Assembly (NCBI GenBank): GCA_016203305.1
Contig: JACQMY010000027.1
Coordinates: 1 to 60,302 of the forward strand
Length of the DNA stretch: 60,302 bases
Source: Candidatus Woesearchaeota archaeon
Lineage (GTDB): Archaea > Nanobdellota > Nanobdellia > Woesearchaeales > ARS49
Reading direction: 5' to 3'
Part shown: positions 21,033-59,645 of the stretch, in pieces
How positions within the stretch are numbered: position 1 is the stretch's first letter
Layout: the number at the start of each line of letters is the position of its first letter
Notes under the pieces: generated by a model
Database searches by the model: none
Seen by the model: only the letters and a program-made list of their open reading frames with translations
What the model was told of the DNA's origin: nothing
Translations under genes and position numbers: made by a program

Positions 21033-21074
21033 TGAACTCTTTTTAAATACTTTTTGGTGTGTTGTGGCCCACTG

Positions 21075-26307: not shown

Positions 26308-26464
26308 CAACCTACAAACTACCTTCGTCCTTCTTCCTTCCGCCTTCGTCCTAATACCTACAACCTTCCTCCTTCACCCTTCGTCCTAATACCTTCTCCC
26401 TTCATCCTACAACCTAATACCTTCAAACTACACACTACTAACTACTAACTACAAACAACTAACC
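26308..26464 (+). repeat. heptad array (20 units in perfect register from 26322)
   Basis: ccttcgt|ccttctt|ccttccg|ccttcgt|cctaata|cctacaa|ccttcct|ccttcac|ccttcgt|cctaata|ccttctc|ccttcat|cctacaa|cctaata|ccttcaa|actacac|actacta|actacta|actacaa|acaacta. Confidence 0.92.
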
Positions 26465-32105: not shown

Positions 32106-32248
32106 TCTTCCGCCTTCGTCCTACTGCACGAGTTTGTAGCTTGTAGTCGGTAGTGCGTAGTACTACAAACTACTTACTACAACCTACTCCCTACGTCCTT
32201 CTACCGTCATCCTAATTCCTAAAACCTAATACCTACAACCTATATCCT
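32104..32248 (+). repeat. composite heptad array with inverted arm
   Basis: Contains the 60-nt block 32113-32172, which recurs at 32838-32904. Confidence 0.85.
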
Positions 32249-44188: not shown

Positions 44189-44766
44189 TGGCGCGGCTTC
44201 TTCGTCCTACTTCCTACAACCTAACGCCTTCGTCCTTCGTCCTTCATCCTACGCCCTACTACCTTCGTCCTACAAACTACAAACTACGAACTGCAAAGGG
44301 CCAGGTTAAGATGTTCGAGACCGTGGGAGTGTTGGTCGTGTTTTTCTTTTTGCTTATTTCCGGTTCTGTGTTTTATTTTGGTGCGCAGAAGTCTTCTTTG
44401 CAGAAGGAGAAGGTTAAGGCTTCTGAGCAGCAGGCGTTGCAGGTTGTTTTGAAGGCTTTGTACTTGCCTGAGCTTGATTGTTCTTTTTTGAAGGCTCAGC
44501 GTGAGAATTGTATTGATAAGTTGAAATTGCGGCATGTTGCTGCTTTGATGCGTAATGAGTCTGTGTTTTCTAATTATTATCCTGAGTTTGGCTACGCGAC
44601 TATTCGCGTGCAGGAGTTGTATCCTGCTGGCGAGTCTGTTGATGTTTATGTTCGTAAGGCTGAGGAGTATTCTTCTATTTTGGTTACTCAGAGTCCGATT
44701 TTGTTGTACGATCCTGTGAGGGAGACTTATGGTTTTGGTGTTATTGAGGTGGCTGCTTATGTCTAG
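44188..44766 (+). CDS. pilin-like protein whose predicted leader is encoded by a heptad array
   Basis: TGATG coupling at 44186-44190. The leader MARLLRPTSYNLTPSSFVLHPTPYYLRPTNYKLRTAKGQ precedes VKMFETVGVLVVFFFLLISG. The only alternative start, ATG 44311, would remove the KGQ motif. Confidence 0.55.
   Translation: MARLLRPTSYNLTPSSFVLHPTPYYLRPTNYKLRTAKGQVKMFETVGVLVVFFFLLISGSVFYFGAQKSSLQKEKVKASEQQALQVVLKALYLPELDCSFLKAQRENCIDKLKLRHVAALMRNESVFSNYYPEFGYATIRVQELYPAGESVDVYVRKAEEYSSILVTQSPILLYDPVRETYGFGVIEVAAYV
44197..44292 (+). repeat. heptad array (inside the 5' end of ORF 44188..44766)
   Basis: cttcttcgtcctacttcctacaacctaacgccttcgtccttcgtccttcatcctacgccctactaccttcgtcctacaaactacaaactac. Confidence 0.85.
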
Positions 44767-45310
44767 TCGACAAACTACGGACTACGCACTACAAACTACT
44801 AACTACAAACCACAAACTAGGGGCCAGATGGAGATTTTCGGTCTGGTCGTTATTGTTATTCTTGTCGCTCTTGGTTTGTTGTTCGCTGTTGTAGTGTTGA
44901 CTAAAAAGCCTGCTCAGCAGTCTCAGAGGGTTAAGGAGAGCATTCAGGCTGCTAATTTTTTGAATACTTTGTTGGGCACTACTGTTGAGAATTGTAACAG
45001 GCGTACGATGAGGGAGTTAGTGCAGGATTGTGCTTTGGCGTCTGTTGGCAGTGGTGAGTGGCTTGGTGATTCTTTGTGCGAAGATGGTGTTTCGACTTGT
45101 AAAAAGCTTAATTCAACTACTGCTTTGTTGTTGGACGCTACTTTGGGTGAGTGGGGTAAGAGGTATAATTTTTTCATGGCCGGTTCTGATGCTATTGAGC
45201 TTGTTCAGATTAGGAATGGTGATTGTAAGGGTGAGCGTGAGGGCAGCACTCGTCCTGAGATTGTGCGTCCTGGTTTTTCTATTAATGTTACGTTGCACAT
45301 TTGCAGATGA
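44759..45310 (+). CDS. pilin-like protein with heptad-array-encoded leader
   Basis: MSSRQTTDYALQTTNYKPQTRGQ|MEIFGLVVIVILVALGLLFAVVVL. ATG 44759 overlaps the upstream stop. The alternative start ATG 44828 lacks the RGQ motif. Confidence 0.55.
   Translation: MSSRQTTDYALQTTNYKPQTRGQMEIFGLVVIVILVALGLLFAVVVLTKKPAQQSQRVKESIQAANFLNTLLGTTVENCNRRTMRELVQDCALASVGSGEWLGDSLCEDGVSTCKKLNSTTALLLDATLGEWGKRYNFFMAGSDAIELVQIRNGDCKGEREGSTRPEIVRPGFSINVTLHICR
44770..44819 (+). repeat. heptad array (ACTACNN class)
   Basis: acaaactacggactacgcactacaaactactaactacaaaccacaaacta. Confidence 0.8.
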
Positions 45311-45326: not shown

Positions 45327-45425
45327 CAGGTGTAAGGGTGAAGAACGCACTATTCTTCCTTCACCCTTCGTCCTAACACCTACGTCCTTCCGCCTTCATC
45401 CTACAACCCTACACACTACAAACTA
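45327..45425 (+). repeat. heptad array with inverted arm (hairpin after the operon end)
   Basis: aagggtgaag ... cttcaccctt forms a 10-bp stem, followed by cgtcctaacacctacgtccttccgccttcatcctacaaccctacacactacaaacta. Confidence 0.85.
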
Positions 45426-46313
45426 GCTGTTTAGTGCCGCTGTTGATGCGCTGAAGTCTGCTATTTTGAGGACGATATGATGTAGGTGGCTGAGTGTTAT
45501 TGGGTCTTCGTTTTTTTCTAGTTCTCGCGTGATTTTGTTTTCCAGTGTTTTGAATTTTTGTGCTAGCGTGCTTAGGTTTTCTAGTTTGAAGTTGTAGTAG
45601 AGTTCGTAGTATTCTCTTAGTAGTTTGTTTGTTTCATTTAACAGCATTAGTGCTTGTGTGTTGGTTTTTTTCTTGTTTAGGTGTTGGCAGAGGTATTTGT
45701 AGTCGTCTGCTATTTTTTCTAAATTCCATATTATGACGTATAGGAAGCTGGTTTTTATCGTGTCTGGGTGTCCTTTTTTGTTTAGTGTTCTTTCGCAGAA
45801 GTTTGTTAGTTGGTTGTTGGTTTTCTCTAGAGTTAGGAGTGCTTGGAGTGGTTTGCTTTCTTTTGCGAGTTCGTGGGTTTGTTCTGCTAGTTGTAGTGTT
45901 ACTATGAATGCTCTTCTTAGGATTGTGTCGAACTGGTCGTCTAGGTCTTGGCTTACTGATCGGATGGTGCAGGTGTTTTTTGTTTTGTGCACGATTGCGA
46001 AGCCGATGAATAGGTCTTTTATGAGTTCTTCTACAATTGTATGTTGTTTGTCGTCTAGGGTTAGTTCTATTTGGTCGTATCCTTTTTTGTGTAAACTGCT
46101 TAGCGTCCAGCGTAGTGCTCTTTCGTCTAATTTTGTCGAATTGATCGAGCTGGTTTTTATTGTTCTTTGTTTGCCCGTTCCCACAACTAGTGTTGGTCCT
46201 TTTTCTGTTACTTCCAGTTCGTCTCCTTTGTTTATTCCGTATTGTTTTATCCAGTGGGTTGGTATGCTGAGTACGTATGTTTTGCCTGCTATTTGTATGA
46301 CTTTGCGTTTCAT
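45423..46313 (-). CDS. AbrB/SpoVT-domain plus PhoU-like regulator
   Basis: N-terminal KVIQIAGKTYVLSIPTHWIKQYGINKGDELEV (AbrB-type swapped hairpin), followed by two helical PhoU-like repeats. Confidence 0.7.
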   Translation of the reverse strand: MKRKVIQIAGKTYVLSIPTHWIKQYGINKGDELEVTEKGPTLVVGTGKQRTIKTSSINSTKLDERALRWTLSSLHKKGYDQIELTLDDKQHTIVEELIKDLFIGFAIVHKTKNTCTIRSVSQDLDDQFDTILRRAFIVTLQLAEQTHELAKESKPLQALLTLEKTNNQLTNFCERTLNKKGHPDTIKTSFLYVIIWNLEKIADDYKYLCQHLNKKKTNTQALMLLNETNKLLREYYELYYNFKLENLSTLAQKFKTLENKITRELEKNEDPITLSHLHHIVLKIADFSASTAALNS

Positions 46314-46362
46314 GCTTGTTTTGTCGTCAGTTTAATATATAAAACCAGTGGCGTGCGCTGTG

Positions 46363-48081
46363 ATGAGTGCTGAAAAGTCTGTTTCGGTTGGAGATTGTGC
46401 TTTTTATGGAACTTCTGCTCTTGTTTGCTACTATTTTTGGAAGAATGGTTTTGGTGAGAATCTTTCTTTTTTGGAGGCGTTGGGTAAGAATTTGTTGTTG
46501 ATAAGCCCAATTATTGCCGGCCTTGGGGCGAATGTTGCTGCGTGGGCTGCGAGAGCTTACACAAAAGATAATTTTTTTCGTGAGCGTACTCGTTTGTCTG
46601 ACTATGGTGTGCTTTCTGGTCTTGAGAAAGAGGTGTTGGAAGAGGTTCCTCCAATTATGAACTTGCAGGGTGAGCAACGCGTGGGCGGGAGTTTGGAGGA
46701 GTTTTTGGATGGGTCTGCAACAGGGCGTCATGGGGGGCGTGCGTTGTTTTTGAAGTATCGTAATCCGCTTTCGCTTATGCGTGCAGCGCGTGGTTTTGTC
46801 GCGAGGGGGGAGTATGATTCTGGTTTTGATTGTTTGAAGTCTGCTATCGAGTGGTCTGATGGCAAGCGTCCAAGTCCTGGATTGCTTTCCATGTTTGGTG
46901 CGCAGTGTTCCCGTTTGGTGAGGGGTGTTGCAAGGAATGTTGAAGTGCGTGATGTTCGTAACTATATTTTTGGTGCTGTTGAGGAGGCGTTGATTGATCC
47001 TGGGCGTGCTTGGCATTTGTCAGAGCTTGGTCGTCGTGTTGCTGATGAATTTAACAGTCCTTTGAAGCTTGAGATGTATATTTTCCATGCGTTGTTGGCA
47101 TCTGCTCAGCGTCGTTCTGACGAGCAGGCTGCTTGGAGGGATATTTATGGGCTTGTTAGGACGCATGGCAAGTTGGCTCCTGCTAGTGATCGCGAGTCTC
47201 GTAATGATGTTCGTATTTTGGATAGTTATTTTTTTGCCGATTCGTTTACTTTTCGTTTTTATCCGCGCAAGGACGAGCTGGTGCGTTTTTGTGATGAGCG
47301 TAATGTTCTTGCGGATGCTGTTCCTGAGGCGGATTGGCCGCTTCCTTATGCTATAGCGGAGGATCCTGGGCGTGGTTATGTTTTGTTGTTGAGGTTTATT
47401 CGTGGTGAGTTGTTGTATGATGCTTTGCGTCGTGGTGACAAATCTCGTATGGGTGGGGCTCTTTCTATTGTTGCTAAGATTCATGCGCGGTATCCTTTGG
47501 ATCGTGTTAAGCCTGTTGACTTGGATGGCAAGTTGAGGAAGAAGTTGTATGATCCTGTGTTTGGGATTCCTCGCGAGTTGGCTGACGCGCTTTTTGCTAG
47601 TCGCGAGCCGATTATTCGTGCTGTGCGCATGATGCCTGATGTTGGGAATACTGATCGTCATCTTGACCAGGTTGTTCTTGCTAGACGGATTGGCGCGCTT
47701 GATTGTGAGGTTGATGGTAGTGTTCCGTGTACTTTTGATGTTGCGAACATGTTGTTGTACCGTGATTTTTTCACAGAGCGTGAGCGTCGTGAATACGTCT
47801 TAGGGTATGCTGCTGATGCAGAAAAGGAAGGGTTGCATTTGGATAAAAGCAAGTTGTCTTGTGCTTTTCATAATTCTGGGATTTATCGTTTGGTTTGTCT
47901 TGCTGGTGCGTGGAGTGATCCTGGCAGGCCTTCTATGCATGGTGAGCGTAAGCCGGCTATTGTTCGTGCCATTCGTGAGTTGCGTGGTGTTCGTGATGAG
48001 TGTCCTGATTTTTATGCGCAATATGCTCGGCAGTATGAGCGTTGGGAGTCTGGTTTGGAGCGCATGGCAGCGCTGTTCTGA
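46363..48081 (+). CDS. protein-kinase-like (APH/HipA/PI3K-like catalytic loop) protein, unknown specificity
   Basis: GNTDRHLDQVVL, followed by IGALDCE, resembles a kinase-fold catalytic loop plus a DFG-like motif. TATA tttaatatata about 27 nt upstream of ATG 46363. Confidence 0.45.
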   Translation: MSAEKSVSVGDCAFYGTSALVCYYFWKNGFGENLSFLEALGKNLLLISPIIAGLGANVAAWAARAYTKDNFFRERTRLSDYGVLSGLEKEVLEEVPPIMNLQGEQRVGGSLEEFLDGSATGRHGGRALFLKYRNPLSLMRAARGFVARGEYDSGFDCLKSAIEWSDGKRPSPGLLSMFGAQCSRLVRGVARNVEVRDVRNYIFGAVEEALIDPGRAWHLSELGRRVADEFNSPLKLEMYIFHALLASAQRRSDEQAAWRDIYGLVRTHGKLAPASDRESRNDVRILDSYFFADSFTFRFYPRKDELVRFCDERNVLADAVPEADWPLPYAIAEDPGRGYVLLLRFIRGELLYDALRRGDKSRMGGALSIVAKIHARYPLDRVKPVDLDGKLRKKLYDPVFGIPRELADALFASREPIIRAVRMMPDVGNTDRHLDQVVLARRIGALDCEVDGSVPCTFDVANMLLYRDFFTERERREYVLGYAADAEKEGLHLDKSKLSCAFHNSGIYRLVCLAGAWSDPGRPSMHGERKPAIVRAIRELRGVRDECPDFYAQYARQYERWESGLERMAALF

Positions 48082-48084
48082 TTT

Positions 48085-48200
48085 TCTACACACTACTTAC
48101 TACAAACTATCTTCGTCCTTCTTCCTTCGCCCTTCCGCCTTCGTCCTTCATCCTAACGCCTAATACCCAATGCCTAATCCCTTCCACCTTATACCTTTCT
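48085..48200 (+). repeat. heptad array
   Basis: ctacacactacttactacaaactatcttcgtccttcttccttcgcccttccgccttcgtccttcatcctaacgcctaatacccaatgcctaatcccttccacc. Confidence 0.85.
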
Positions 48201-48262
48201 TATACTTCTTAAGAATCGAATTGATACGTGTTGTTTGCTTGTTTTTGTTTGAGGTGATCGTT

Positions 48263-48745
48263 ATGAAGAGGTCTGATGTTAAGTTGGTGGCTGGCTTGCG
48301 ACGGAATGCTCGTTTGTCTTTGACAAACTTGGCACGTAAGACGTGTTTGCCCTTGAGCACGTTGCATGAGCGTTTGCGTAGTCATGCGCGTTCTGGCGTT
48401 ATGCGTCCTATTTTGTTGTTGGACTTTGCGCGTCTTGGCTTTTCAGCTTCTGCTTTTGTTAAGCTGGCTGTTGACAATAAGGACAAGGATGCTATTTTTT
48501 CTTTTTTGAGGGTTCATCCGAATGTTAATGCGTTGTTCCGTATTAACAATGGCTGGCACGTTCTTGCCGAGGTTGTTTTTCATGACATGTCTGCTTTGGA
48601 GGATTTTGTTGAGCAGGTGGAAGCGAAGTTTACTGTGAAACAGAAGGATGTTTGCTATGTGCTTGGCGAGGTGGCGCGTGAGAATTTTCTTGGAGATGCT
48701 AAGAGTGCGGAGGAATTGTTGAAGGTTGGTGATGAGCGAGAGTAG
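48263..48745 (+). CDS. Lrp/AsnC-family transcriptional regulator
   Basis: HTH LVAGLRRNARLSLTNLARKTCLPLSTLHERL plus a RAM-like C-terminal domain. SD gaggtgat at 48251-48258. The ORF-track start at 48170 reads through the array. Confidence 0.8.
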   Translation: MKRSDVKLVAGLRRNARLSLTNLARKTCLPLSTLHERLRSHARSGVMRPILLLDFARLGFSASAFVKLAVDNKDKDAIFSFLRVHPNVNALFRINNGWHVLAEVVFHDMSALEDFVEQVEAKFTVKQKDVCYVLGEVARENFLGDAKSAEELLKVGDERE

Positions 48746-48851: not shown

Positions 48852-49394
48852 ATGAAAAAGGACGAATTGGTGTTGGACTTGTTTTTCAATGAGCCAACCA
48901 AACACTGGCATTTCGAGGAAATATTGACTGCTGTTAAGATCAGTAGGCCGCAAGCTGCAGGATGGTTGCGAAAATTCGTCAAGGAAGGGCTAGTCAGAAG
49001 AATTAAGCCAAAAGGTAAAATGCCTTATCATGTGGGAAATTATGAAAGTTCCACATATCAGGCAAGGAAGCGGTTGTTTGCGCTGAACAAGCTTGAAAAG
49101 CAGGGTTTTCTTAGCCATTTAACTAGCTTGCCAAAAGCGCAGGCAGTCATAATGTTTGGCAGCATGAGCCGCTGGGACTGGAATAAAGAAAGCGATATAG
49201 ACCTTTTCGTGTACGGCGATCCAGAAGGCTTCGACAAGGGTGCATTTAGAGCGAAATTGGGTCGTGAAATTGAAACATTCGTATGCAAAGATAAGGAAGA
49301 CCTGCAGAGGCTTAAACCCGCGCTCTTACGAAACATATTAGAAGGGTATTTAATCAAGGGAACACTTAATTTCGTGCAGGTTGCGCATGCGTGA
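48852..49394 (+). CDS. nucleotidyltransferase (MNT-type) with N-terminal wHTH
   Basis: GSMSRWDWNKESDIDLFVY (GS-x-n-DxD minimal nucleotidyltransferase motif). Confidence 0.7.
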   Translation: MKKDELVLDLFFNEPTKHWHFEEILTAVKISRPQAAGWLRKFVKEGLVRRIKPKGKMPYHVGNYESSTYQARKRLFALNKLEKQGFLSHLTSLPKAQAVIMFGSMSRWDWNKESDIDLFVYGDPEGFDKGAFRAKLGREIETFVCKDKEDLQRLKPALLRNILEGYLIKGTLNFVQVAHA

Positions 49395-49854
49395 AGACAG
49401 AAGTTTAGCTGGTGTTTTCAAAGGTTGTACTAATGAAGGCTCATTCAGCCCTCTTGCAAAAATTGATACAGACCAAGTCCGTGCAATGTTCGATGTTGCC
49501 TTAGCGGACTTTGGCACGGTCAAAGAGTGGAGCAAGAAAGCGGCAAGAGAGAGCGGACAGTGGAATGCAATCTACAAATTGGCCTATGACGTTCTTCACA
49601 CGCTTTCTGAGGCATTCCTTGTGTTTGATAAGATAAAAGCAAGAACGCACGAATGCGTATTTGCCTATCTCTGTGAAAAACATCCTGAATTTGAATTCGA
49701 TTGGAATTTTTTTGAGAAAGTCAGAACGGTAAGAAATCGCAGTATTTACTATGGCGAACCTGCGTCATATGCGCATTGGAAAGAAATAGACTTACAAATC
49801 AATCTCTACATTAAAACTTTGGAAAAAGCGGTTGAAACAAGGCAAAAAGTTTAA
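49387..49854 (+). CDS. HEPN-like helical protein paired with the nucleotidyltransferase
   Basis: Overlaps the MNT gene by 8 nt. All-helical, about 155 aa, with an RNRSIYYG segment near the C-terminal third. A canonical Rx4-6H motif is not evident. Confidence 0.45.
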   Translation: MREDRSLAGVFKGCTNEGSFSPLAKIDTDQVRAMFDVALADFGTVKEWSKKAARESGQWNAIYKLAYDVLHTLSEAFLVFDKIKARTHECVFAYLCEKHPEFEFDWNFFEKVRTVRNRSIYYGEPASYAHWKEIDLQINLYIKTLEKAVETRQKV

Positions 49855-49983: not shown

Positions 49984-50250
49984 GATTCTACAAACCACAC
50001 ACTACAAACTACCAACTACAAACTATCTTCATCCTTCCGCCTTCATCCTAATACCTAACGCCTAATACCTAATTGAGGTTGAAGGTATAAGGTGGAAGGA
50101 TGAAGACCGTTGTTCTTCCGCCTTCTTCCTTCACCCTTCGTCCTAATACCTAACGCCTAATACCTAATTGAGGTTGAAGGTATAAGGTGGAAGGATGAAG
50201 ACCGTTGTTCTTCCGCCTTCTTCCTTCCACCTTCATCCTACCCAATGCCT
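49984..50250 (+). repeat. long heptad array containing two hairpin modules and an 87-nt perfect direct duplication
   Basis: 50046-50132 is identical to 50141-50227. Each copy holds the inverted arm aggttga|aggtata|aggtgga|aggatga. Confidence 0.9.
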
Positions 50251-50252
50251 AC

Positions 50253-50266
50253 AAAAAGCTTAAATA
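50253..50266 (+). promoter_or_regulatory. BRE/TATA-like element (aaaaagcttaaata)
   Basis: Resembles aaagctttatata at 120 and 1806. Lies about 40 nt upstream of ATG 50304. SD agaggtg at 50291-50297. Confidence 0.45.
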
Positions 50267-50303
50267 CGCGGGTAGCTGTCTTTGTGTGAAAGAGGTGTTA
50301 TGT

Positions 50304-50618
50304 ATGAAAGGACAAGGGCTTCCGATTACGACAATCATTATTGCTGCTTTAGGTATTATTGTGTTGGTGGTTGTTGGCGCGATTTTTTCAGGTCAGATTG
50401 GTAAGTTTGGTCGTGCTGCTTCCGAGTGTACGGGCAGGTGTGTTGTGAAGAGTCCTTCCATTGCTATGCAGAATTCTGGTGCTACTTTCGAGCAGGATAC
50501 TGCTTGTAATCCTGAGTTTGAAACTAGGTTGACTGGCACGTATATTGCAAAGGGCACTCCTAAGGATCAGAAGATTCAGGACTTTATGTGCACTGCGTGT
50601 TGTGTTGCTACAGGATAG
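50304..50618 (+). CDS. pilin-like protein 1 (class III signal peptide)
   Basis: MKGQG|LPITTIIIAALGIIVLVVVGAIF. Cys-containing C-terminal domain ending CTACC. Confidence 0.78.
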   Translation: MKGQGLPITTIIIAALGIIVLVVVGAIFSGQIGKFGRAASECTGRCVVKSPSIAMQNSGATFEQDTACNPEFETRLTGTYIAKGTPKDQKIQDFMCTACCVATG

Positions 50619-50619
50619 T

Positions 50620-50862
50620 ATGAAAGCGCAGGGCTTGCCGGTTACTATGATTATCATTGTAGCGATAGGCCTTATCGTGTTGGTCATCATGGGCTATATT
50701 GTGTCTCAGAAGACCACTCAGTTCGGCAAGGGCACGAAAGAGGTTGCTGGCCAGGAGTGTAAAGTTCCTGTTGGCACGCCTATGCTTATCGAGGATTGCC
50801 AGGATCCTGTGTATGGTGCTTTCTCGAACGTTCGTGCTGATCAGGTGTGTTGTAAGCGATAA
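50620..50862 (+). CDS. pilin-like protein 2 (paralog of 50304..50618)
   Basis: MKAQG|LPVTMIIIVAIGLIVLVIMGYIV. C-terminus ...QVCCKR. Confidence 0.78.
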   Translation: MKAQGLPVTMIIIVAIGLIVLVIMGYIVSQKTTQFGKGTKEVAGQECKVPVGTPMLIEDCQDPVYGAFSNVRADQVCCKR

Positions 50863-50893
50863 GATTTTATAATCTGTTTTTTCTATTCTCTTT

Positions 50894-51004
50894 ATGAACA
50901 AAAGAGGAGATGTTTCTATGTTTGAGCAGGTGGCTATGGGTATTATTGTTGCTGTCATTATTGGCTTGGCGATTTACATCTTCATGAAGAAGGTGTTGGC
51001 GTGA
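50894..51004 (+). CDS. 36-aa mini pilin-like peptide
   Basis: Hand-translated as MNKRGD|VSMFEQVAMGIIVAVIIGLAIYIFMKKVLA*. Below the ORF-track cut-off. GTGA overlap with the next gene. Confidence 0.5.
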   Translation: MNKRGDVSMFEQVAMGIIVAVIIGLAIYIFMKKVLA

Positions 51005-52080
51005 ACAGGCGTGCTGCTGAGCCGATATATATCGTGGTTGGCATGATTGTTATTGCTATTTCTTTGCTGGCGATTTTTGGTGTTTTGGGTGGTTTGAAGG
51101 CTGCTATTTTTGGCACGGCTGAGAAACAGCAGTGTAGTTGGGATTTGTTTTTGTCTGCTTTGGTCAGCAAGGTTCCTTTTGCTGAGAAGGAGGCTGGTGC
51201 TTGTAAGATGCAGACGTTAACGGTTGACAAGAAAGCTCTTGATGCGCGTAAGAAGTTGTCCTTTGTCAAGAAGGGGTTGAAAAAATCTCAAAGTCCTGGC
51301 AATCCTGCTCGCGAGTATTTTCCTGATGAAACTAAGATTGACGAGTGGGCGTTGGATTATTTGATGGCTGAACAGTTGAAGGGTTGTTGGGATAAGGTGT
51401 GGAAGGGTAAGTTGAACATTTTTGCTAGGGGCAAGGTTGAGGATCAGAGTATTTGTGTTGTTTGTTCGCAATTGGTTTGGGGAAGGGATCTGCCTGGTTC
51501 GATTTTGTATCCTAAGGATGGGATGATCACTTCTCTTGATGCATGGTTGAAAACAACGTCTATTCCTGGTCAGTCTAAGTTTTATTATGATCATATTGCT
51601 GAGGGTCAGACCGTTCCTCCGAATCCTGCGGCGTTTGCATTTTATACTAATACGCCTTACGCTGTTGTGTATATGGAAGTTGTGGATTCATATTGGACTG
51701 GGTTCACTAGTTTTTGGAAAGATCATCCTGAGCTTGATTTGGGGCTGTTGGTAGCTGGTGTTGTAATTCCTCGCTTGGGCGCGGTTAGGCTAGTGCAGCA
51801 AGTTGCGCTTGTTCCGCGGGTTGCTGCGGGTGTTAAGCTCGCTACTGCTGGTGCGCGTGTTGTTGGCCTTGTTGGCGCAGGGAGCGTTTTTTATGATCAG
51901 GCGGCTGCGCTTTATGGCGGAAACATTTTTGCATTGAACGCTTTAAAGGCCATGCGCGAGGAGATGAAAAGTAAAGGGTTGAGCACAGGAAAGGTTTTAT
52001 TGTTTGCTCCGTTTTCAACGCTTCGTGATCCTATTGATTCGCCAAATGGAGGTCTGGGATGTACAAAAGTGATCGCGTGA
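51001..52080 (+). CDS. pilin-like protein 4 (359 aa)
   Basis: GTG start. MNRRAAE|PIYIVVGMIVIAISLLAIFG. Hydrophobic Gly/Ala/Val-rich segment near the C-terminus. Confidence 0.7.
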   Translation: MNRRAAEPIYIVVGMIVIAISLLAIFGVLGGLKAAIFGTAEKQQCSWDLFLSALVSKVPFAEKEAGACKMQTLTVDKKALDARKKLSFVKKGLKKSQSPGNPAREYFPDETKIDEWALDYLMAEQLKGCWDKVWKGKLNIFARGKVEDQSICVVCSQLVWGRDLPGSILYPKDGMITSLDAWLKTTSIPGQSKFYYDHIAEGQTVPPNPAAFAFYTNTPYAVVYMEVVDSYWTGFTSFWKDHPELDLGLLVAGVVIPRLGAVRLVQQVALVPRVAAGVKLATAGARVVGLVGAGSVFYDQAAALYGGNIFALNALKAMREEMKSKGLSTGKVLLFAPFSTLRDPIDSPNGGLGCTKVIA

Positions 52081-52217
52081 ACAAAAAGGGTCAGGAGATT
52101 CCTGGTTGGATGTTTATTATTGGCATTATTCTTGGCTTGCTTGGCTTGGGCGTGTTGATTTATATCGCGATGAAGTCTGGTCGTCTGGGTTCAGAGGCTA
52201 TTGGTGGTTTGGGATGA
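52059..52217 (+). CDS. 52-aa pilin-like peptide
   Basis: Hand-translated as MYKSDRVNKKGQ|EIPGWMFIIGIILGLLGLGVLIYIAMKSGRLGSEAIGGLG*. The alternative GTG start at 52077 forms a GTGA overlap with the upstream stop. Confidence 0.5.
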   Translation: MYKSDRVNKKGQEIPGWMFIIGIILGLLGLGVLIYIAMKSGRLGSEAIGGLG

Positions 52218-52780
52218 ATAGTAAGGGTATTAGCATGATTTTTGTCGTGCTGATTTTGGGTATTGTGGTAATTGCTGTCAGCATTCCTGTTTTCATGTTG
52301 GGCAAGAAGACTGCTGATAAGGGTGTGTTGAAGACGTTGAGTGATGTTCTTTTTGGCGAGCAAACAGACGCGGCGTCTGCGAGGGGGAGGCTTCCTACTC
52401 CTGATCCAGTGGTTTTGCCTCCGGACAAGCGTGCCGCGATTGATATGTTGTTGGCGTACATTATTGATTGTCATGTGAAGTATAGGGATTTTAAGCAGTG
52501 GAATTGTGCAGAGATTTTCACGCACGAGATGGGTGGTGTGCGTATTTCTAAGGCTGAATTGTTGAGCGATGCTAATATCGCTTATTTGAAGTCTCAAGGG
52601 GTTAGTGATGTTGAGTGGGGCAGTGGGGAGGGCATGATTACTTTTTTGGGCAGGACACGGGATCCTGTGCCTCTTGCAGTGCTTTGTTATTATAGTGGTG
52701 CAGCTGAGCTTGGTGGGGACATAGCCCATTTTGATAAAGTTCGTCTTATGACTGGGTTTGTGCTTGGTCCGTGCAGCTAA
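52214..52780 (+). CDS. pilin-like protein 6
   Basis: MNSKG|ISMIFVVLILGIVVIAVSIPVF. ATGA overlap with the upstream peptide. Confidence 0.7.
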   Translation: MNSKGISMIFVVLILGIVVIAVSIPVFMLGKKTADKGVLKTLSDVLFGEQTDAASARGRLPTPDPVVLPPDKRAAIDMLLAYIIDCHVKYRDFKQWNCAEIFTHEMGGVRISKAELLSDANIAYLKSQGVSDVEWGSGEGMITFLGRTRDPVPLAVLCYYSGAAELGGDIAHFDKVRLMTGFVLGPCS

Positions 52781-52804
52781 AGGTTTAAATATGCGTGATT
52801 GTTG

Positions 52805-53140
52805 ATGAACTTCATGCACAAAAGGGGCGCTGAGTTTGCAGTGGGTACGGTGATAATGATTGTTCTTGGTTTGATAGTGCTCGTCATTCTGAGCGTGGTT
52901 GTTCGTAACTATGTGACAAAGGGTACTAAGCAGTATTCTGAGATTGGCGAGCAGGCTCAGGCTGGTGCTGATGTTTGCCAGTCTATTTTGAGTGGTCGTT
53001 CTTGTGCGTCGAGTTGTTCTGGTGATTATGAGAATGCTCCTAACCCTCCTGGTGGTGTGTGGTCTGATTGTGGTAAGGCGGGAACAAAATTGGCGGAGAA
53101 GCGGGTGTGTTGTCAGAAGAGGGAGTCTGTTTCTCCGTAA
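52805..53140 (+). CDS. pilin-like protein 7
   Basis: M(NFM)HKRGA|EFAVGTVIMIVLGLIVLVILSVV. TATA aggtttaaatat at 52781-52792. Start at ATG 52805 or 52814. C-terminus ...RVCCQK is like proteins 1 and 2. Confidence 0.72.
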   Translation: MNFMHKRGAEFAVGTVIMIVLGLIVLVILSVVVRNYVTKGTKQYSEIGEQAQAGADVCQSILSGRSCASSCSGDYENAPNPPGGVWSDCGKAGTKLAEKRVCCQKRESVSP

Positions 53141-53149
53141 TTTTCTCAG

Positions 53150-53281
53150 TCTACACACTACTTACTACAAACCACTTACTAATTGCCAACAGCCACCTAA
53201 TGCCAAACGCCGTTCTTCTCCCTTCCGCCTTCTTCCTTCATCCTTCTCCCTTCCACCTTCGCCCTTCTTCCTTCACCCACT
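53150..53281 (+). repeat. heptad array
   Basis: ctacacactacttactacaaaccacttactaattgccaacagccacctaatgccaaacgccgttcttctcccttccgccttcttccttcatccttctcccttccaccttcgcccttcttccttcaccc. Confidence 0.88.
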
Positions 53282-53284
53282 ATC

Positions 53285-53292
53285 TTTATAAA
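53285..53292 (+). promoter_or_regulatory. TATA box (tttataaa)
   Basis: Its centre is about 27 nt upstream of ATG 53316, which fits a leaderless transcript. It immediately follows the heptad array. Confidence 0.55.
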
Positions 53293-53315
53293 CTTCTTTC
53301 CGCTGTTTTTGCGTT

Positions 53316-53852
53316 ATGAAAAGAGGTCAGTTTTTGTCTCCGCAGTTTTTGGTTATTTTGGTTGTTACTGCGTTGGCGATTGGTTTTGGCATTTATGGGT
53401 TGGTTAAGGTTATGGGCGGTTTTGCTGGTTCTGCTGGTGAGGCAGTTGCTTATTTTGATGTTGTTGTTCAGTCTGTTAAGAATACTGTTTCTATTGATCA
53501 GCCGATAACCTTGTTTGCGTATAAGGAGACGGATAAGAAACCAATGCGTTTGTACTTTCAGTCTCCTGATGCTGATGTTCAGGTTGGCAAGTGTCCTAGG
53601 GGTGTTCCTTGTATGTGTGTTTTGGCTGATGTTGGTGGTAAGCCTGTGGAGAAGTGTGAGGTGCTTGCTGTTGCTAAGGAGAAGCTTATTGGTGAGGATT
53701 TGAGGGGTTTTTCTGGTATGGCGCGTTGCCCAGTGGCTTGTCGTGGTGAGGTTGTGTGTATTCCGAATGAATTAAAGCGTATTGATGTTCAGGATGGTCA
53801 GAAGTTAATCGTAGGGCGTGATTGTAATACTTTGTTCGTGAGGGTTGCATGA
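53316..53852 (+). CDS. pilin-like protein 8
   Basis: MKRGQ|FLSPQFLVILVVTALAIGFGIYGLV. Confidence 0.75.
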   Translation: MKRGQFLSPQFLVILVVTALAIGFGIYGLVKVMGGFAGSAGEAVAYFDVVVQSVKNTVSIDQPITLFAYKETDKKPMRLYFQSPDADVQVGKCPRGVPCMCVLADVGGKPVEKCEVLAVAKEKLIGEDLRGFSGMARCPVACRGEVVCIPNELKRIDVQDGQKLIVGRDCNTLFVRVA

Positions 53853-54667
53853 GTCGTGGTCAGGTTGACTTGTGGTCGTTGGTTTTAACACCGACTTTTT
53901 TCATTGCTTTGGTTTTGGTTATTTTTTTGGGTGGTATGTTGGCGAAGATTTACTTGTTGGGTTCTGATAGGCGTTTGGACATGGATGTTTTTTCTGCTGA
54001 TGGCGCGTTGGATGTTGACGATGCTTATTTGTTGCCGCCGGACATGAATTTTGCTAAGGACTCGACTGGTATTGCGCAGGGTTTGTATTTATTTTTCGAG
54101 CAAGGGAAAGTGGTTGCTTCTGAGTCTTCTCCTGATAAGGGGCGTTATTTCTATTTCACTGGGGATAACCGGTATGAGTTCAATGGCGTTAGGGTTTCAG
54201 GCAGTTATACTATGGTGAGAGATGGTAATGTTGTTGAAGTTCGTCAGCTTGGTCCTGTGAGCTTGCGTTTGCCGTTTTGTGAGAGGGGTTCTGCAAGAAT
54301 AACTAGGGCAAAGTTGGTTGGTCGTGATGTTGATGGTTTGCGTTCTTTGTTGCAGGGTTTGCGGCAGCAGGTGTGGGGGGATAGTGGTGCGTGGGTTGGT
54401 GTTGCGCGTTCGCCAGTGAATGTTATACGTGTTAAGGCGTTGCGTGATGTTGAGAGTGCGAGGCTTGGTTGTTGGGTTCAACAGTCGTTGTTGAGGTCTT
54501 TGCCTGATGTTAAGGTTGCTTTAGTGCCGGCATCGCCTTTTGGTGTTGGCTTGGAGTCTGAGATGGCGGGTTCTCCTGCTGTGCTTGTTGAGGTTCCTGT
54601 TGGCTTGCAGGATCGTGCTGTTGCTTTGGCTATTGTTGGGGGTCTTGATGCGTATGCTCCGCGGTAA
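53849..54667 (+). CDS. pilin-like protein 9
   Basis: MSRGQ|VDLWSLVLTPTFFIALVLVIFLGG. ATGA overlap. Confidence 0.72.
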   Translation: MSRGQVDLWSLVLTPTFFIALVLVIFLGGMLAKIYLLGSDRRLDMDVFSADGALDVDDAYLLPPDMNFAKDSTGIAQGLYLFFEQGKVVASESSPDKGRYFYFTGDNRYEFNGVRVSGSYTMVRDGNVVEVRQLGPVSLRLPFCERGSARITRAKLVGRDVDGLRSLLQGLRQQVWGDSGAWVGVARSPVNVIRVKALRDVESARLGCWVQQSLLRSLPDVKVALVPASPFGVGLESEMAGSPAVLVEVPVGLQDRAVALAIVGGLDAYAPR

Positions 54668-55133
54668 TAGAGGTGTTTTGTCTGCGCGTGATGCTATGTG
54701 GTTGATAGTTTACGTCATGGTGGCTATGGCTGTTGCGTTTGCTTTGGCTAAGTTTCCTGAAGGGTTGTTGCAGCGTGTTTCTCAGCCGGTTATGGTTGAT
54801 GCTGAGCTTATGTCTTTGCGCGCGCAGACTTTGTTGACTTTTGTTGATCCGTTTACTGGTTGGCAGCAGAGTGTGTATGCTGGTCCTGTTTCTGCGCGTA
54901 TGGGTTCTTTGGTTTTGAGTCCTAAGAAGTTTGGGTTAGAGATCTCGTCAGGAGCTGATAAGTACTATCCGAGCGCTCAGTCTGAGAAGTTTTTCAAGGC
55001 GGCTCGTGAGTTTGCTCCGAGTAGGAATTATGCGTTGCATGAAAAGACATACCAATATAGAGACGCGTCCGGCCGTCCTGTGTCTGTTCGCGTTACTCAG
55101 GTGTATCCAACTTCTTATGAGGCTTATGAATAA
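54648..55133 (+). CDS. pilin-like protein 10
   Basis: MRMLRGNRG|VLSARDAMWLIVYVMVAMAVAFA. Overlaps the upstream gene by 20 nt. The ORF-track start at 54540 lies in an overlapping frame. Confidence 0.6.
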   Translation: MRMLRGNRGVLSARDAMWLIVYVMVAMAVAFALAKFPEGLLQRVSQPVMVDAELMSLRAQTLLTFVDPFTGWQQSVYAGPVSARMGSLVLSPKKFGLEISSGADKYYPSAQSEKFFKAAREFAPSRNYALHEKTYQYRDASGRPVSVRVTQVYPTSYEAYE

Positions 55134-55662
55134 GCGTGGTGATTTGCAGGCTTTGTCGTTGGTGTTGTTCGTGCCAGCTATTGCTTTGTTTATGATTTTG
55201 TTTTACGTGTTTGTTGGCTTGTCGATTGATGAGCCGCAGGTTAAGGTTCAGAGGACTGCGTTGAGTAATACTTATGCTAGGGCTGAGGTTTTTGAGTTTT
55301 TGAACCAGCCGGTTGCTGGCGTGCCTCGTTGGATGTTGCTTCCTTTGCAGCCTGTTGATGATGTTAAAGCTCAATTGACAGAGTTTTACAGTCGTACTGA
55401 GGGCGTTTCTGTTCATTCTGTAACTTGCGCCAAGACCGAGCCTGTGTTGCATTGTGAACTTTATTTGAAGCTTAACGTTCCGTATGAGGACTTGGTGGCG
55501 TTGACGCCTGGCGGGCCGTTGTTGTTTGCGTATCGTGCTTCTGCTGCCGTGTTGAGTAATGAGTTTGTGAACGAGCGTGTTGTTTTGCCTTTGCGTGTTG
55601 GCCAGCAGGCTGACGTGTTGGTGTTTGAGTTGAAGGGGGTGAGCGAGCCGCTTGCTCGGTAG
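55126..55662 (+). CDS. pilin-like protein 11
   Basis: MNKRGD|LQALSLVLFVPAIALFMILFYVFVG. 8-nt overlap with the upstream gene. Confidence 0.7.
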   Translation: MNKRGDLQALSLVLFVPAIALFMILFYVFVGLSIDEPQVKVQRTALSNTYARAEVFEFLNQPVAGVPRWMLLPLQPVDDVKAQLTEFYSRTEGVSVHSVTCAKTEPVLHCELYLKLNVPYEDLVALTPGGPLLFAYRASAAVLSNEFVNERVVLPLRVGQQADVLVFELKGVSEPLAR

Positions 55663-55664
55663 TT

Positions 55665-56453
55665 ATGCGTATTGTTAACAGTAGAAAGGGTGTTGATTTT
55701 ATGGTGTTGATGTTTTTTGCAGTTTTGATTTTGTTGGCTGCTTTGTACGCTCAGCTTTTTGCCAAGGCTGAGGCGCCCGCGAGAGTTATTGGTGAGTCTC
55801 AGATTCCGCTTGTGAATGCGTTGCATGATCGTGTGGTTTTGGACATGTTTATGCGTGGTGCTGTTGAGTTTTCGCTTGGCAGAGCTACTGATGTTCTTGT
55901 TCAAAAGGGAGGTTTTGCAGAGGCTCCTTGTGGTGGTGTTGTTGATGGTTGTTTTGTTGTGAACAAGGATGATGATCCTAAGCGGGTTTGTCGTCCTGAT
56001 TTCATGGCGTTGACTCGTCAGGAATTTAACACTGCAATGGATGGTTTTGTTGCAAAGTATAATGAACAGTCAAGGGTTGTTCTTCCTTTGCAGAATTTTG
56101 AGGTTTCTGCTGATCAGGGTCGTTTTACTGCTGTTTCCATAAGTCCTGTTGAGCTTCCTTTGCGGAGGGTTTCTAGTCCGGTGGTTATTGGTAAGGTTGC
56201 TTGGCGTCCTGGTGTTGATATTGTCAGCCCGAATTTGCCGTTTTCATCGTTTGATGCTGCTTTCCGTACTTTGCAGGATGTTGCTACCGCCTGTCACGGT
56301 GATGCTGATGCTCAGTCGTGTGCTTTGCGTCGCGTTCCTGTTGCTTGGAATTTTGAGAAGAAGGGTGATGTGTTTGCTTTCCGTGTTCCTGTTGGCAGGT
56401 TTAAGGTGTGTTATGGTTTGCATGTTGTTGGTGCAGCACAAACTACTAGCTAA
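55665..56453 (+). CDS. pilin-like protein 12
   Basis: MRIVNSRKG|VDFMVLMFFAVLILLAALYA. Starts 2 nt after the upstream stop. Confidence 0.7.
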   Translation: MRIVNSRKGVDFMVLMFFAVLILLAALYAQLFAKAEAPARVIGESQIPLVNALHDRVVLDMFMRGAVEFSLGRATDVLVQKGGFAEAPCGGVVDGCFVVNKDDDPKRVCRPDFMALTRQEFNTAMDGFVAKYNEQSRVVLPLQNFEVSADQGRFTAVSISPVELPLRRVSSPVVIGKVAWRPGVDIVSPNLPFSSFDAAFRTLQDVATACHGDADAQSCALRRVPVAWNFEKKGDVFAFRVPVGRFKVCYGLHVVGAAQTTS

Positions 56454-56462: not shown

Positions 56463-56545
56463 TCTTCTTCCTACAACCTTCATCCTTCCGCCTTCGTCCT
56501 AATACCTACTTCCTTCCGCCTTCATCCTAATTCCTACCACCTAAA
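56463..56545 (+). repeat. heptad array
   Basis: ttcttcttcctacaaccttcatccttccgccttcgtcctaatacctacttccttccgccttcatcctaattcctaccacctaa. Confidence 0.88.
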
Positions 56546-56587
56546 TTCTTATAAATAAGTTCTATACTGCTTTTGTTGGGGTGCTTA

Positions 56588-57559
56588 ATGATTCGGATGC
56601 CTTTGCCTGATATGTTGGCGAGATTGAAGGAGAAGTCTGGTCTTTCCGAGCAGGATATTCTTGCGAAGATTGATGCGAAGTGTGCTTCTTTGTCTGGTTT
56701 GATTTCTAAGGAGGGTGCTGCGCATATTATTTCGAATGAGCTTGGTGTTAAGTTGTTGGAGAGTTCTGGTAAGATTCGTGACTTGTTGCCTGGCATGCGT
56801 AATGTTGAAATTCTTGGTCGGGTTACTCAGGTTTTTGATGTTAGGGAGTTTCAGCGTGCTGATGGTTCTGGTGGTAAGGTTGGTAGTTTCCTTGTTGGTG
56901 ATGATTCTGGTATTGTGCGGATTGTTTGTTGGGGTACTCAGGCTGAGGTTCTTCGCCAGCTTTCTGCTGGTATGCCTTTGAAGATTTCTGGTGGTTTGGT
57001 TAGGGAGAACCAGCGGGGGTATAAGGAGGTGCATTTGAACGAGGCTTCTCGTGTTAACTTGTCTCCTCAGGAGCCGGTTCCTGAGGTTGGTAAGGTTCAA
57101 AGGAAGACTTTGCGTGAGCTTCAGGAGTCTGATGATCAGGTTGAGATCATGGGCACTGTTGTGCAGGTATTTGATCCTAAGTTTTTCGAGGTTTGTCCTC
57201 AGTGTAATACGAGGGTTAAGGAGGTTGAGGGTCATTGGTCTTGCGGTGAGCACGGCACGGTTGTTCCTGACTATAGTTATTTGGTGAATGTTTTCCTTGA
57301 TGATGGTACTGAGAACTTGCGTGTTGTTTTGTTTAGAAACCAGGCTGAGAAGTTGTTGGATAAGACTAAGGAGCAGATGGTTGCTTATCGTGTTGCTCCT
57401 GATTCTTTTGAGCCTTTGAAGACTGAGTTGTTGGGCGAGCAGTTTAAGTTTGTTGGTCGTGTGAAGAAGAATACTTTTTTTGATCGTTTGGAATTTATTG
57501 CCAACCAGGTTAAGAAGGCAAATGCTGATGAGGAGTTGGCCAAGCTTGATCCGCAGTGA
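56588..57559 (+). CDS. rpa: RPA-like single-stranded DNA-binding protein (OB folds plus Zn ribbon)
   Basis: N-terminal helical domain (LSEQDILAKIDAKCASLSGLISKEGAAHIISNELGV), OB fold, and CPQC...CGEHG zinc ribbon. TATA ttcttataaata at 56546-56557. Confidence 0.8.
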   Translation: MIRMPLPDMLARLKEKSGLSEQDILAKIDAKCASLSGLISKEGAAHIISNELGVKLLESSGKIRDLLPGMRNVEILGRVTQVFDVREFQRADGSGGKVGSFLVGDDSGIVRIVCWGTQAEVLRQLSAGMPLKISGGLVRENQRGYKEVHLNEASRVNLSPQEPVPEVGKVQRKTLRELQESDDQVEIMGTVVQVFDPKFFEVCPQCNTRVKEVEGHWSCGEHGTVVPDYSYLVNVFLDDGTENLRVVLFRNQAEKLLDKTKEQMVAYRVAPDSFEPLKTELLGEQFKFVGRVKKNTFFDRLEFIANQVKKANADEELAKLDPQ

Positions 57560-57601
57560 TTGCGAAAGGCTTTTAAATGTCATTGACTAGTGGTCACTGT
57601 C

Positions 57602-58845: not shown

Positions 58846-58952
58846 GTCTTCATCCTTCCGCCTTCGTCCTAATGCCAAATGCCCAACGCCCTAATACCTT
58901 CGTCCTTCCGCCTTCATCCGCCTACAACCTAATACCCAACAGCCAAAAGCTA
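58846..58952 (+). repeat. heptad array
   Basis: gtcttcatccttccgccttcgtcctaatgccaaatgcccaacgccctaataccttcgtccttccgccttcatccgcctacaacctaatacccaacagccaaaagc. Confidence 0.88.
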
Positions 58953-58994
58953 TTATACGCGTTCGTAGTTCTATCGATCAAAAGGGTGATTCTC

Positions 58995-59459
58995 ATGATG
59001 GGCAGAACTCATATGGCAATAGGATTTCTAGTAGGCTTGTTAGTTTTGCCTTTTGTTCAGCCGGATAACAGTCTGTTGTTCGTATTTTTAGTAACGTTTG
59101 CAAGCTTGTGGCCGGATGTCGATCATGAGAACAGTAAGATCAATCGGTTGCTTCCGATAACGCGTTGGATTCCGCGCGTGTTTGTGCATCGTGGTTTTTT
59201 TCATAGCGTTTTTCCAGCATTAATATTATATGGTGTGTTTTGGTATTTTGGCTTGGCGTGGATTGGTCTTCCGCTTGCGCTTGGCTACTTGACCCATTTA
59301 GCTTCTGATTGTCTTACGCGGCTTGGTTGTAATTTGTTGCACCCGGTTAGCACGTTTCGCATTCAGGGTTTTGTCTGGACTGATGGCTTGGTTGAGTTTG
59401 CGTTGTTTGGTGTGGTTGTAGTTCTTGATGTCGTTGTTGGCGTTATGCGTTTCTTTTGA
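58995..59459 (+). CDS. DUF457/YdjM-like membrane-bound metal-dependent hydrolase
   Basis: MMGRTHMAIGFLVG...WPDVDHENSKI...HRGFFHS...THLASD. SD aagggtgat precedes ATG 58995. The ORF-track start at 58872 reads through the array. Confidence 0.7.
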   Translation: MMGRTHMAIGFLVGLLVLPFVQPDNSLLFVFLVTFASLWPDVDHENSKINRLLPITRWIPRVFVHRGFFHSVFPALILYGVFWYFGLAWIGLPLALGYLTHLASDCLTRLGCNLLHPVSTFRIQGFVWTDGLVEFALFGVVVVLDVVVGVMRFF

Positions 59460-59465: not shown

Positions 59466-59645
59466 TCTACAAACTGCGGGCTAATGGCCACTGGCCAACA
59501 TCCTTCGTCCTAATTCCTACAACCTAACGCCTAATACCTACATCCTTCGTCCTAATACCTAATAGCCAAAAGCCTACATCCTTCGTCCTAATACCTTCTT
59601 CCGCCTTCATTCTTCGTCCCAATCCCCACTTCCCACTGGACACTA
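59466..59645 (+). repeat. heptad array (about 25 units)
   Basis: ...catccttcgtcctaattcctacaacctaacgcctaatacctacatccttcgtcctaatacctaatagccaaaagcctacatccttcgtcctaataccttcttccgccttcattcttcgtcccaatccccacttccc. Confidence 0.88.

Follow-up and report, generated by a model that had tools for sequence, protein, structure and literature searches.

The Epd pilus locus of Methanococcus maripaludis, a type IV filament (TFF) 'system 1' locus, encodes many different class III signal-peptide proteins together, comprising major and minor subunits, and some of the pilins of such systems are encoded apart from the machinery. The locus carries its own peptidase, two platform proteins and an ATPase beside three to four minor pilins; system 1, with its many pilins, or system 4A has been reported in some DPANN archaea (bioRxiv 10.64898/2026.04.22.720090). 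In bacteria, the minor-pilin and pseudopilin operons of the type II secretion system (GspG-K), type IV pili (FimU-PilVWXE) and competence (ComGC-GG) are tight operons of unrelated subunits with a common N-terminal site and helix, in which a single small subunit is abundant and several others are low-copy, the latter presumably building a tip or priming complex. The Sulfolobus bindosome (Bas system) instead places a pilin-type N-terminus on functional non-pilin domains working at the cell surface; its substrates are sugar-binding proteins tied to ATP-binding cassette (ABC) transporters, served by a dedicated ATPase and platform protein. Lastly, Woesearchaeota and Pacearchaeota encode giant, stand-alone lytic-transglycosylase proteins of up to 3000 residues, which the accessible portions of the reports do not describe with pilin-type leaders (Castelle 2015/2021; Vigneron 2022). 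Here we describe an array of 12 consecutive genes (g01-g12, 50304-56453, plus strand) in a 60,302-nucleotide stretch of DNA from Candidatus Woesearchaeota archaeon (assembly GCA_016203305.1, contig JACQMY010000027.1, positions 1 to 60,302; hereafter the window), and compare it with each of these systems.

Like the Epd locus, the array groups many different proteins with class III-type N-termini. It differs in holding 12 pilin-like genes, or 17-18 with an upstream half, with no machinery within tens of kilobases; its proteins show no sequence match to PF04021 or other pilin models, and their heads have no known fold. With the bacterial operons it shares the tight organization, the unrelated subunits behind a common N-terminal module, and what appears to be one small, abundant subunit type beside several low-copy ones, but it carries the archaeal recognition motif, lacks both G/F-x-x-x-E (here and below, the slash marks the predicted cleavage site) and a conserved E5, and has twice as many subunits. 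We know of no bacterial counterpart to its helix-only members or its enzyme-derived heads. Unlike the bindosome, it has no linked transporter, and its recognizable domains are murein hydrolases or their remnants. The large transglycosylases come from the same lineage, have the same inferred peptidoglycan target, and share an SLT domain with relatives of g12; in the array, by contrast, hydrolase domains are small and follow a pilin-like helix, and within the window they are degenerate or missing. Since both class III signal peptides and clusters of pilin genes are already known, the array is not categorically new. Undescribed in the literature we found are the size and conservation of the set, the lack of a match to any known pilin family or fold, the helix-only members, the enzyme-derived heads and the consistent separation from machinery. 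We put the chances at about even that the array encodes lineage-specific subunits of an archaeal type IV filament or pseudopilus variant, with its machinery elsewhere, perhaps contacting bacterial cell walls.

All 12 genes encode a basic leader of three to nine residues ending in [KR][GA], followed by a hydrophobic helix of about 20 residues, as a preliminary description of this DNA had stated. The leaders bear one to three net positive charges and are followed by a few polar or acidic residues and then the hydrophobic stretch, with a mean Kyte-Doolittle hydropathy of 2.5-3.5 over 18 residues. The same type of leader occurs in about three in ten other window proteins with an N-terminal transmembrane helix; at that rate, the chance of finding it in 12 of 12 is about 5e-7. 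Sites cut by FlaK, PibD and EppA carry K/R at -2 and often at -3, and G/A at -1, with Q at +1 for EppA. Judged by sequence, the array N-termini have this recognition pattern of archaeal prepilin peptidases, and their KG/Q-type sites presumably resemble EppA/EpdA substrates, for which we take Q at +1 to be typical. A reading of the K/R-G codons as a mere Shine-Dalgarno-like nucleotide signal was ruled out, since most of the genes have no downstream start codon.

Some 140 orthologues retain the motif, and this holds across all 12 genes. Among 124 array proteins from related loci, a set chosen by the motif, the leader is mostly four to five residues long with the consensus M-N-K-K-G; K occupies -3 in 71%, position -1 is G (68%) or A (32%), Q stands at +1 in 32% (about ten times background), and 61% feature an acidic residue within +1 to +6. 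A motif-blind check of the same loci left only about four array genes without the motif, most apparent misses being start-codon artefacts. The g04 family offers an independent test of this conservation. A first homologue search with full-length g04 returned only g04 itself; HMMER then collected 134 clusters (50% identity, E<=1e-3) including g04, leaving 133 homologues, 42 of them at E<=1e-10. K/R-G/A directly precedes the helix in about 108 of the 122 full-length homologues (about 89%), and K/R-x-G occurs in about ten others.

A basic n-region followed by a hydrophobic stretch, as present in each of these proteins, would also be expected of ordinary Sec signal peptides removed by signal peptidase I, which would yield soluble secreted proteins. 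Such signals, or lipoboxes, are indeed found on the other exported proteins of the window (...SLLVSAQS at 33432, ...PLVVAQG at 35087), and the array proteins therefore constitute a separate signal class. In place of an h-region of 7-15 residues with an AxA-type site or lipobox, their hydrophobic stretches run for 20-25 residues with no AxA-type site after them, and in the two modeled proteins, g04 and g12, the predicted helix continues for 48-72 residues into the folded protein. These features make Sec processing very improbable.

The array is a conserved syntenic locus rather than an accident of one genome. The source organism is a Woesearchaeota-type DPANN archaeon, and archaeal genes in the window encode PheRS α and β, RFC, PAN, a FEN-1-like protein, RNase P p30 and RPA. 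The last of these (56573-57559, plus strand; Pfam), an OB-fold single-stranded-DNA-binding protein, is the conserved right-hand neighbor of the array and served as the anchor for retrieving related loci; a contig scan of the genome collection with g09 as the query gave no match. RPA orthologues of 52-82% identity were found on 21 contigs, as well as a single relative at 40% identity, every one of them belonging to a GTDB species representative; these contigs are mostly labelled Woesearchaeota, Nanoarchaeota or Nanoarchaeia, and several 'uncultured Methanosarcinales'. In tblastn searches of the RPA-anchored loci, all 12 genes were detected upstream of RPA in the same order in locus L009 (metagenome-assembled genome SURF_65), and most of them in L006, L011, L013, L017, L019, L005, L014, L015 and L024. 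The array is thus kept syntenic, always adjoining RPA, in at least 12 related genomes, with at least nine unrelated families in conserved order. A 16-sequence alignment searched against metagenomes gave 5 loci, and metagenome loci L027-L029, one of them on an 875-kb contig, repeat the same picture. Three sequencing runs yielded short contigs with g09 and its neighbors as identical copies. Gene calls made independently by JGI and ENA for additional contigs agree, and place a Pfam family on none of the array genes.

Clustering divides the 12 proteins into families F1 (g01, g02 and g07), F3, F4, F5, F6, F8, F9, F10, F11 and F12. An all-against-all hhalign comparison of the head domains related no two families at a probability of 50% or more; at least nine unrelated proteins therefore share the N-terminal module only, and the 'minor' subunits are not paralogues detectable by such profiles. 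The three F1 proteins, of 80-108 residues, combine a small head containing four invariant Cys with an almost invariant N-terminus, [KR][GA]-QGLPI(T/S)TIIIAALG(L/I)(I/V)VLV. They comprise g01 (50304-50618, 104 residues; MKG/QGLPITT, MKG/QGLPITTIIIAALG...), with a Cys-rich head ending in CC and orthologues 45-72% identical, its paralogue g02 (50620-50862, 80 residues; MKA/QGLPVT), ending in CCKR, and a third paralogue, g07 (52814-53140, 108 residues; MHKRG/AEF, MHKRG/AEFAVGTVIMIVLG...), with CC near its C-terminus. The C-terminal Cys pair remarked upon earlier is real and invariant in this family. Pairwise identity among orthologues is higher over the first 30 mature residues than over the rest, at 73% vs 41% for g01, 57% vs 35% for g02 and 44% vs 33% for g07. 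Greater conservation of the helix than of the head is a major-pilin pattern on these alignments, and g01 is a candidate major subunit. No such excess of helix over head conservation is seen in families F4 and F8.

Two further proteins consist of little beyond the N-terminal module. The mini-protein g03 (50894-51004, 36 residues, family F3; MNKRG/DVSMFEQV...) is helix-only and conserved in L009, L013, L017, L005 and L015, and g05 (52077-52217, 46 residues, family F5, GTG start; MNKKG/QEIPGW) is likewise helix-only, with a conserved PGW motif. The remaining seven proteins carry larger heads. These are g04 (51001-52080, 359 residues, family F4, GTG start; MNRRA/AEP), with six nearly invariant Cys in its head; g06 (52214-52780, 188 residues; MNSKG/ISM), with a pilin-like N-terminus and a head of unknown fold; g08 (53316-53852, 178 residues, family F8; MKRG/QFL), with a pilin-like N-terminus and a Cys-rich head; g09 (53849-54667, 272 residues, family F9; MSRG/QVD), in which the N-terminus is followed by a middle domain and a degenerate Amidase_3 domain; g10 (54654-55133, 159 residues, family F10; MLRGNRG/VLS) and g11 (55126-55662, 178 residues, family F11; MNKRG/DLQ), both with heads of unknown fold; and g12 (55665-56453, 262 residues, family F12; MRIVNSRKG/VDF), the most widely conserved and always the last gene before RPA. 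All are encoded on the plus strand. The sole clear orthologue of g06 is in L009, a non-homologous gene occupying the same position in other loci. The start codons of g07, g10 and g11 are uncertain by two to three codons, nearby ATGs having been chosen by other gene callers.

AlphaFold2 models were made for two of the 12 proteins. That of g04, built with 119 homologues, has a predicted local distance difference test score (pLDDT) of 79.5 and a predicted template-modeling score of 0.76, and features a continuous helix from residue 8 to 55 (48 residues) followed by an α/β head whose core exceeds pLDDT 90. That of g12 (pLDDT 75) combines a helix spanning residues 10-81 (72 residues) with an α/β head; a homologue search with a g12 alignment lacking the transmembrane helix gave 11 matches, and 11 sequences entered the model. 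Both models thus predict the long helix plus globular head of a pilin-like protein. The structural check proposed in the preliminary description was borne out in this overall shape; for a known pilin fold it was not. Residues 251-295 of g04 (51751-51885) form a 45-residue, low-confidence hydrophobic segment rich in Ala, Gly and Val, which varies in length among homologues and gave weak glycine-zipper matches in two of them; it could conceivably be a membrane-active loop.

From these features we infer a filament or short pseudopilus for which the 12 genes and a further five or six pilin-like genes upstream of them would supply a subunit set specific to Woesearchaeota-type DPANN archaea. Each protein would insert into the membrane with its short basic leader (M-N-K-K-G) in the cytoplasm; a class III (prepilin-type) signal peptidase encoded elsewhere would cut after the G/A; and an ATPase and platform machine, also encoded elsewhere, would build the structure from the hydrophobic N-terminal helix. 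The small, Cys-rich g01, g02 and g07, with their almost invariant helix, would form the bulk, g03 and g05 would be helix-only subunits, and g04, g06 and g08-g12 would be seven low-copy 'minor' or tip subunits displaying unrelated heads. The same motif evidence would also fit proteins that are processed yet never assembled into a long filament, their heads, some enzyme-derived, being shown at the surface as proposed for the sugar-binding proteins of Sulfolobus. The large unrelated heads on most members and the enzyme-derived domains behind a pilin-like helix suit such an arrangement, and the bindosome supplies a precedent (bioRxiv 10.64898/2026.04.22.720090). However, three small paralogues with a conserved helix and two helix-only proteins look like bulk filament material, and a bindosome too needs an ATPase and a platform protein, neither of which was seen in the window or the related loci. 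We therefore regard a display system of this kind as unlikely.

Two of the families have links to murein hydrolases. When 97 array proteins of related loci were scanned, three F9 orthologues matched Amidase_3 (PF01520) above the gathering score (L006:7479-8483, 35.1 bits; L011:7221-8243, 33.7 bits; L016:617-1561, 43.2 bits; cut-off 27), and all three retain the DPGHG, SLH and LEIGN segments. Searched against Pfam, g09 itself has no Amidase_3 hit. It belongs to a motif-less F9 subgroup that aligns with the intact subgroup over 268 columns (hhalign probability 99.7%, E 8.7e-27); in the F9 alignment its DPGHG and SLH segments are deleted or replaced, and only the Glu of LVE remains. We take the aligned positions to be the zinc ligands (His/Glu/His) and the catalytic Glu known for the family. 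Because the motif-less subgroup is homologous to the orthologues that match Amidase_3, g09 is best described, from its alignment, as three parts: the pilin-like helix, then a middle domain, and last an amidase domain, degenerate in that two of its three presumed zinc ligands are gone. The F12 relatives in the more distant loci L024 and L023 feature a C-terminal SLT domain, at 26.0 and 19.1 bits respectively (cut-off 21.3).

Woesearchaeota have been reported to carry genes for large lytic transglycosylases, with which they are suspected of attacking bacterial walls, and have been proposed to live on bacteria as predators or episymbionts (PMC9723730, PMC8204110); what is accessible of these two papers does not connect the enzymes with pilin-type leaders, and a survey of archaeal peptidoglycan hydrolases lists Sec and Tat signal peptides only (PMC12352652). 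The earlier suggestion that these proteins serve host contact in an episymbiont agrees with the DPANN lineage, and the Amidase_3 and SLT links turn it toward contact with bacterial walls, a more specific guess because it draws on the g09 family and the relatives of g12. The structure would then bind bacterial peptidoglycan and, in some relatives, cut it, which is plausible given the murein-amidase origin of the g09 head and the lytic transglycosylase domain found in relatives of g12. A bolder version, which we consider doubtful, is that the array encodes an unrecognized organelle derived from type IV filaments, with about 17 subunit families of new fold and minor subunits that come from, or in some lineages still are, murein amidases and lytic transglycosylases. 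Such an organelle would act as a wall-gripping or wall-piercing pilus for attaching to or feeding on bacterial hosts, and its machinery may be so divergent, or lie so far off in the genome, that current surveys count these genomes as having no type IV pili.

The absence of assembly machinery noted in the preliminary description holds for the whole window. Its Walker-A proteins were identified as PAN, RFC and a Pelota-like protein. The 532-residue membrane protein at 22236-23834 (minus strand) has no peptidase motif, the 577-residue protein at 46348-48081 contains a single transmembrane helix and matches nothing in Pfam or among PDB sequences, and 58872-59459 encodes YdjM. In relatives, a 350-residue P-loop protein 3' of RPA is RadA and another P-loop protein is RadB-like, no other Walker-A protein being present close to the array there; two polytopic proteins of 445-490 residues about 7 kb 3' gave no T2SSF hit and are taken, from their sequences, to be GT-C-type glycosyltransferases. 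Archaeal pilin genes are commonly encoded apart from their machinery (PMC4858521).

Several results weigh against a type IV filament. No secretion ATPase, polytopic platform protein or A24-type peptidase was found in the 60-kb window, nor, for about 15 related loci, in the 10 kb flanking the array at each end, and a groundwater study states that DPANN genomes lack type IV pilus components (bioRxiv 10.1101/2020.05.14.094862). The FlaFind pattern [KRDE][GA][ALIFQMVED][ILMVTAS]x3 fits three of the 12 proteins (g03, g06 and g10); the others miss its strict form because polar or acidic residues usually fill +1 to +6 ahead of the helix. At E<=1, none of the 12 matched a curated pilin, archaellin or class III model (PF04021, PF07790, PF01917, NCBIfam). 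Foldseek searches against the PDB found no fold match for either model (best E 3.4 for g04 and 0.19 for g12) and no pilin among the hits, and PDB sequence-profile searches with the F1, F9 and F12 alignments returned nothing. No active hydrolase is evident in the window, g09 lacking the zinc ligands and g12 the SLT domain. Moreover, the positive-inside rule predicts a basic leader for an uncleaved anchor as well. Beyond these, scanning the 12 proteins with Pfam and NCBIfam yielded nothing above threshold, only noise that stems from the transmembrane helix, and 119 members of the g04 family had no Pfam hit; the sole trace of a pilin model is g06 against UpsB (E 0.015, 15 bits against a cut-off of 70). 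The architecture of the array is pilin-like, and membership of any known pilin family is unsupported.

As an alternative, the leaders may be uncleaved signal anchors, the proteins being single-pass, N-in/C-out components of a membrane-tethered envelope or surface complex that involves no peptidase, ATPase or filament. The empty searches for machinery and for pilin families and folds fit such anchors, as do the [KR][GA] leaders on some 30% of unrelated window proteins with an N-terminal transmembrane helix, the few polytopic proteins of related loci that also begin with K/R-G before their first helix, and the F4 and F8 helices that are no better conserved than their heads. However, the positive-inside rule needs no small residue at -1, whereas among more than 250 divergent sequences about 90-97% keep G/A there, and the G persists even where the preceding K/R moves by one position. 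Nor does it call for the tenfold enrichment of Q at +1; a near-invariant F1 helix would be unusual for a passive anchor, and helix-only g03 and g05 would anchor nothing. We regard uncleaved anchors as possible, if clearly a minority option. The surface filament or attachment organelle first proposed for these genes is partly supported, through the N-termini, their conservation, the models and the F1 pattern; the lack of pilin-family and pilin-fold matches counts against it.

Upstream of the array lie five of the six further pilin-like genes that had been counted in the window, all six of which exist. The five are on the plus strand at 36217-37491, 42619-43128, 43121-44188, 44170-44766 and 44729-45310, accompanied by the gene for a 1716-residue secreted protein (37482-42632, plus strand). 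This upstream half is also syntenic in L005, L013, L027 and L028. In L024 upstream pilin-like genes (44729-like) directly abut a g01-like gene, and the two clusters of the window are therefore halves of one super-locus. Two of the upstream genes have lost the start codon of the leader (44290-44313 and 44815-44830): their K/R-G-Q codons are kept, no ATG, GTG or TTG stands before them, and a heptad array abuts these codons. Orthologues of the two begin MRGQVKMFETVG and MSKGQMEIFG. Translation probably starts at the internal Met at 44311 or 44828, giving a leaderless N-terminus, as if already processed. The sixth pilin-like gene (23967-25127, minus strand; MMNKRG/KSPIQ...) belongs to a second envelope gene cluster on the minus strand (19040-25127), together with three paralogous lipobox proteins (19040-19978, 20088-21032 and 21152-22078) and the 532-residue protein mentioned above, which has five transmembrane helices; the scanned members of this cluster have no family match.

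In relatives the gene order runs from large secreted proteins through four to five pilin-like genes to an AbrB/MazE-type regulator on the opposite strand, then an unknown protein of 575-640 residues, an Lrp/AsnC regulator, the array of 12-13 genes, RPA and YdjM, with RadA further downstream. The corresponding window genes are the AbrB/MazE-type DNA-binding protein (45423-46313, minus strand), conserved in synteny; the 577-residue protein (46348-48081, plus strand), which has its one transmembrane helix at the N-terminus and lies between both pilin-like arrays in most relatives; and the Lrp/AsnC-type regulator (48170-48745, plus strand; Pfam and synteny), just 5' of the array in relatives. The 577-residue protein contains a GNTDRHLDQ motif, which to us recalls HipA-type kinases, and, adjoining AbrB-type and AsnC-type regulators, it may regulate the locus. 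Between the AsnC regulator and g01 lies a nucleotidyltransferase and HEPN-like pair (48852-49854, plus strand; Pfam) that is missing at this position in L009, L013, L028 and L031; since most relatives have no such pair there, we read it as an insertion that does not belong to the system. A similar pair is inserted within the array on another contig (L030:811-1798), which suggests a mobile toxin-antitoxin-like cassette that targets the array locus.

Within the array, the tight coupling through ATGA or GTGA overlaps and short gaps described earlier is present at every junction (gaps of 1-33 nucleotides) with the sole exception of a 175-nucleotide gap before g08, and most starts are preceded by purine-rich Shine-Dalgarno-like stretches. 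TATA-like boxes on the plus strand precede g01 (TTAAATA, 50260-50266, about 38 nucleotides 5'), g07 (TTTAAATA, 52784-52791, 22 nucleotides 5') and g08 (TTTATAAA, 53285-53292, 23 nucleotides 5', after a G-free heptad array at 53151-53278). These boxes, 22-40 nucleotides upstream, would act as promoters, and the division into three transcription units proposed previously is plausible. The g01 box follows a heptad and inverted-repeat array (49988-50240; a 95-bp unit repeated 2.3 times, inverted repeats of 17-36 nucleotides). G-free arrays with a 7-nucleotide period (CCTTCAT, CCTAATA, CTACAAA) occupy many intergenic regions, usually just 5' of a gene and its TATA-like box: 13023-13084, 26321-26463, 32163-32242, 44200-44297, 44770-44819, 45353-45402, 48111-48161, 49988-50240, 53151-53278, 56464-56537 and 59498-59633. 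In-frame read-through of these arrays creates spurious N-terminal extensions of open reading frames. In L011, L014, L015 and L016 a conserved short sequence lies just 5' of several array genes and translates as ...AFSS(L/F)EKLRFS(R/K)R[AG] or ...KKGSAEQSSAGLFSP.RKKG; this sequence has the look of a nucleotide repeat set between array genes, possibly forming a hairpin. The window also shows extreme strand asymmetry: GC skew reaches +0.40, AT skew falls to -0.50, and the plus strand, which carries most genes, consists of 35% T, 27% G, 20% A and 18% C. Because this strand is poor in A, long spurious open reading frames arise on the minus strand, e.g. 52160-53158 and 56585-57583.

The array bears on how uncultured DPANN archaea touch their hosts and on which hosts these are; groundwater surveys have treated pili as a marker of candidate phyla radiation (CPR) bacteria rather than of DPANN. 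The array contributes about ten testable families, which this analysis encountered in Woesearchaeota-type genomes and metagenome contigs only. A survey of archaeal peptidoglycan hydrolases whose signal prediction covers Sec and Tat alone could overlook enzymes that leave the cell behind class III-type leaders. If the filament interpretation is correct, these genes would give Woesearchaeota a concrete candidate attachment organelle and would support bacteria as their partners or prey.

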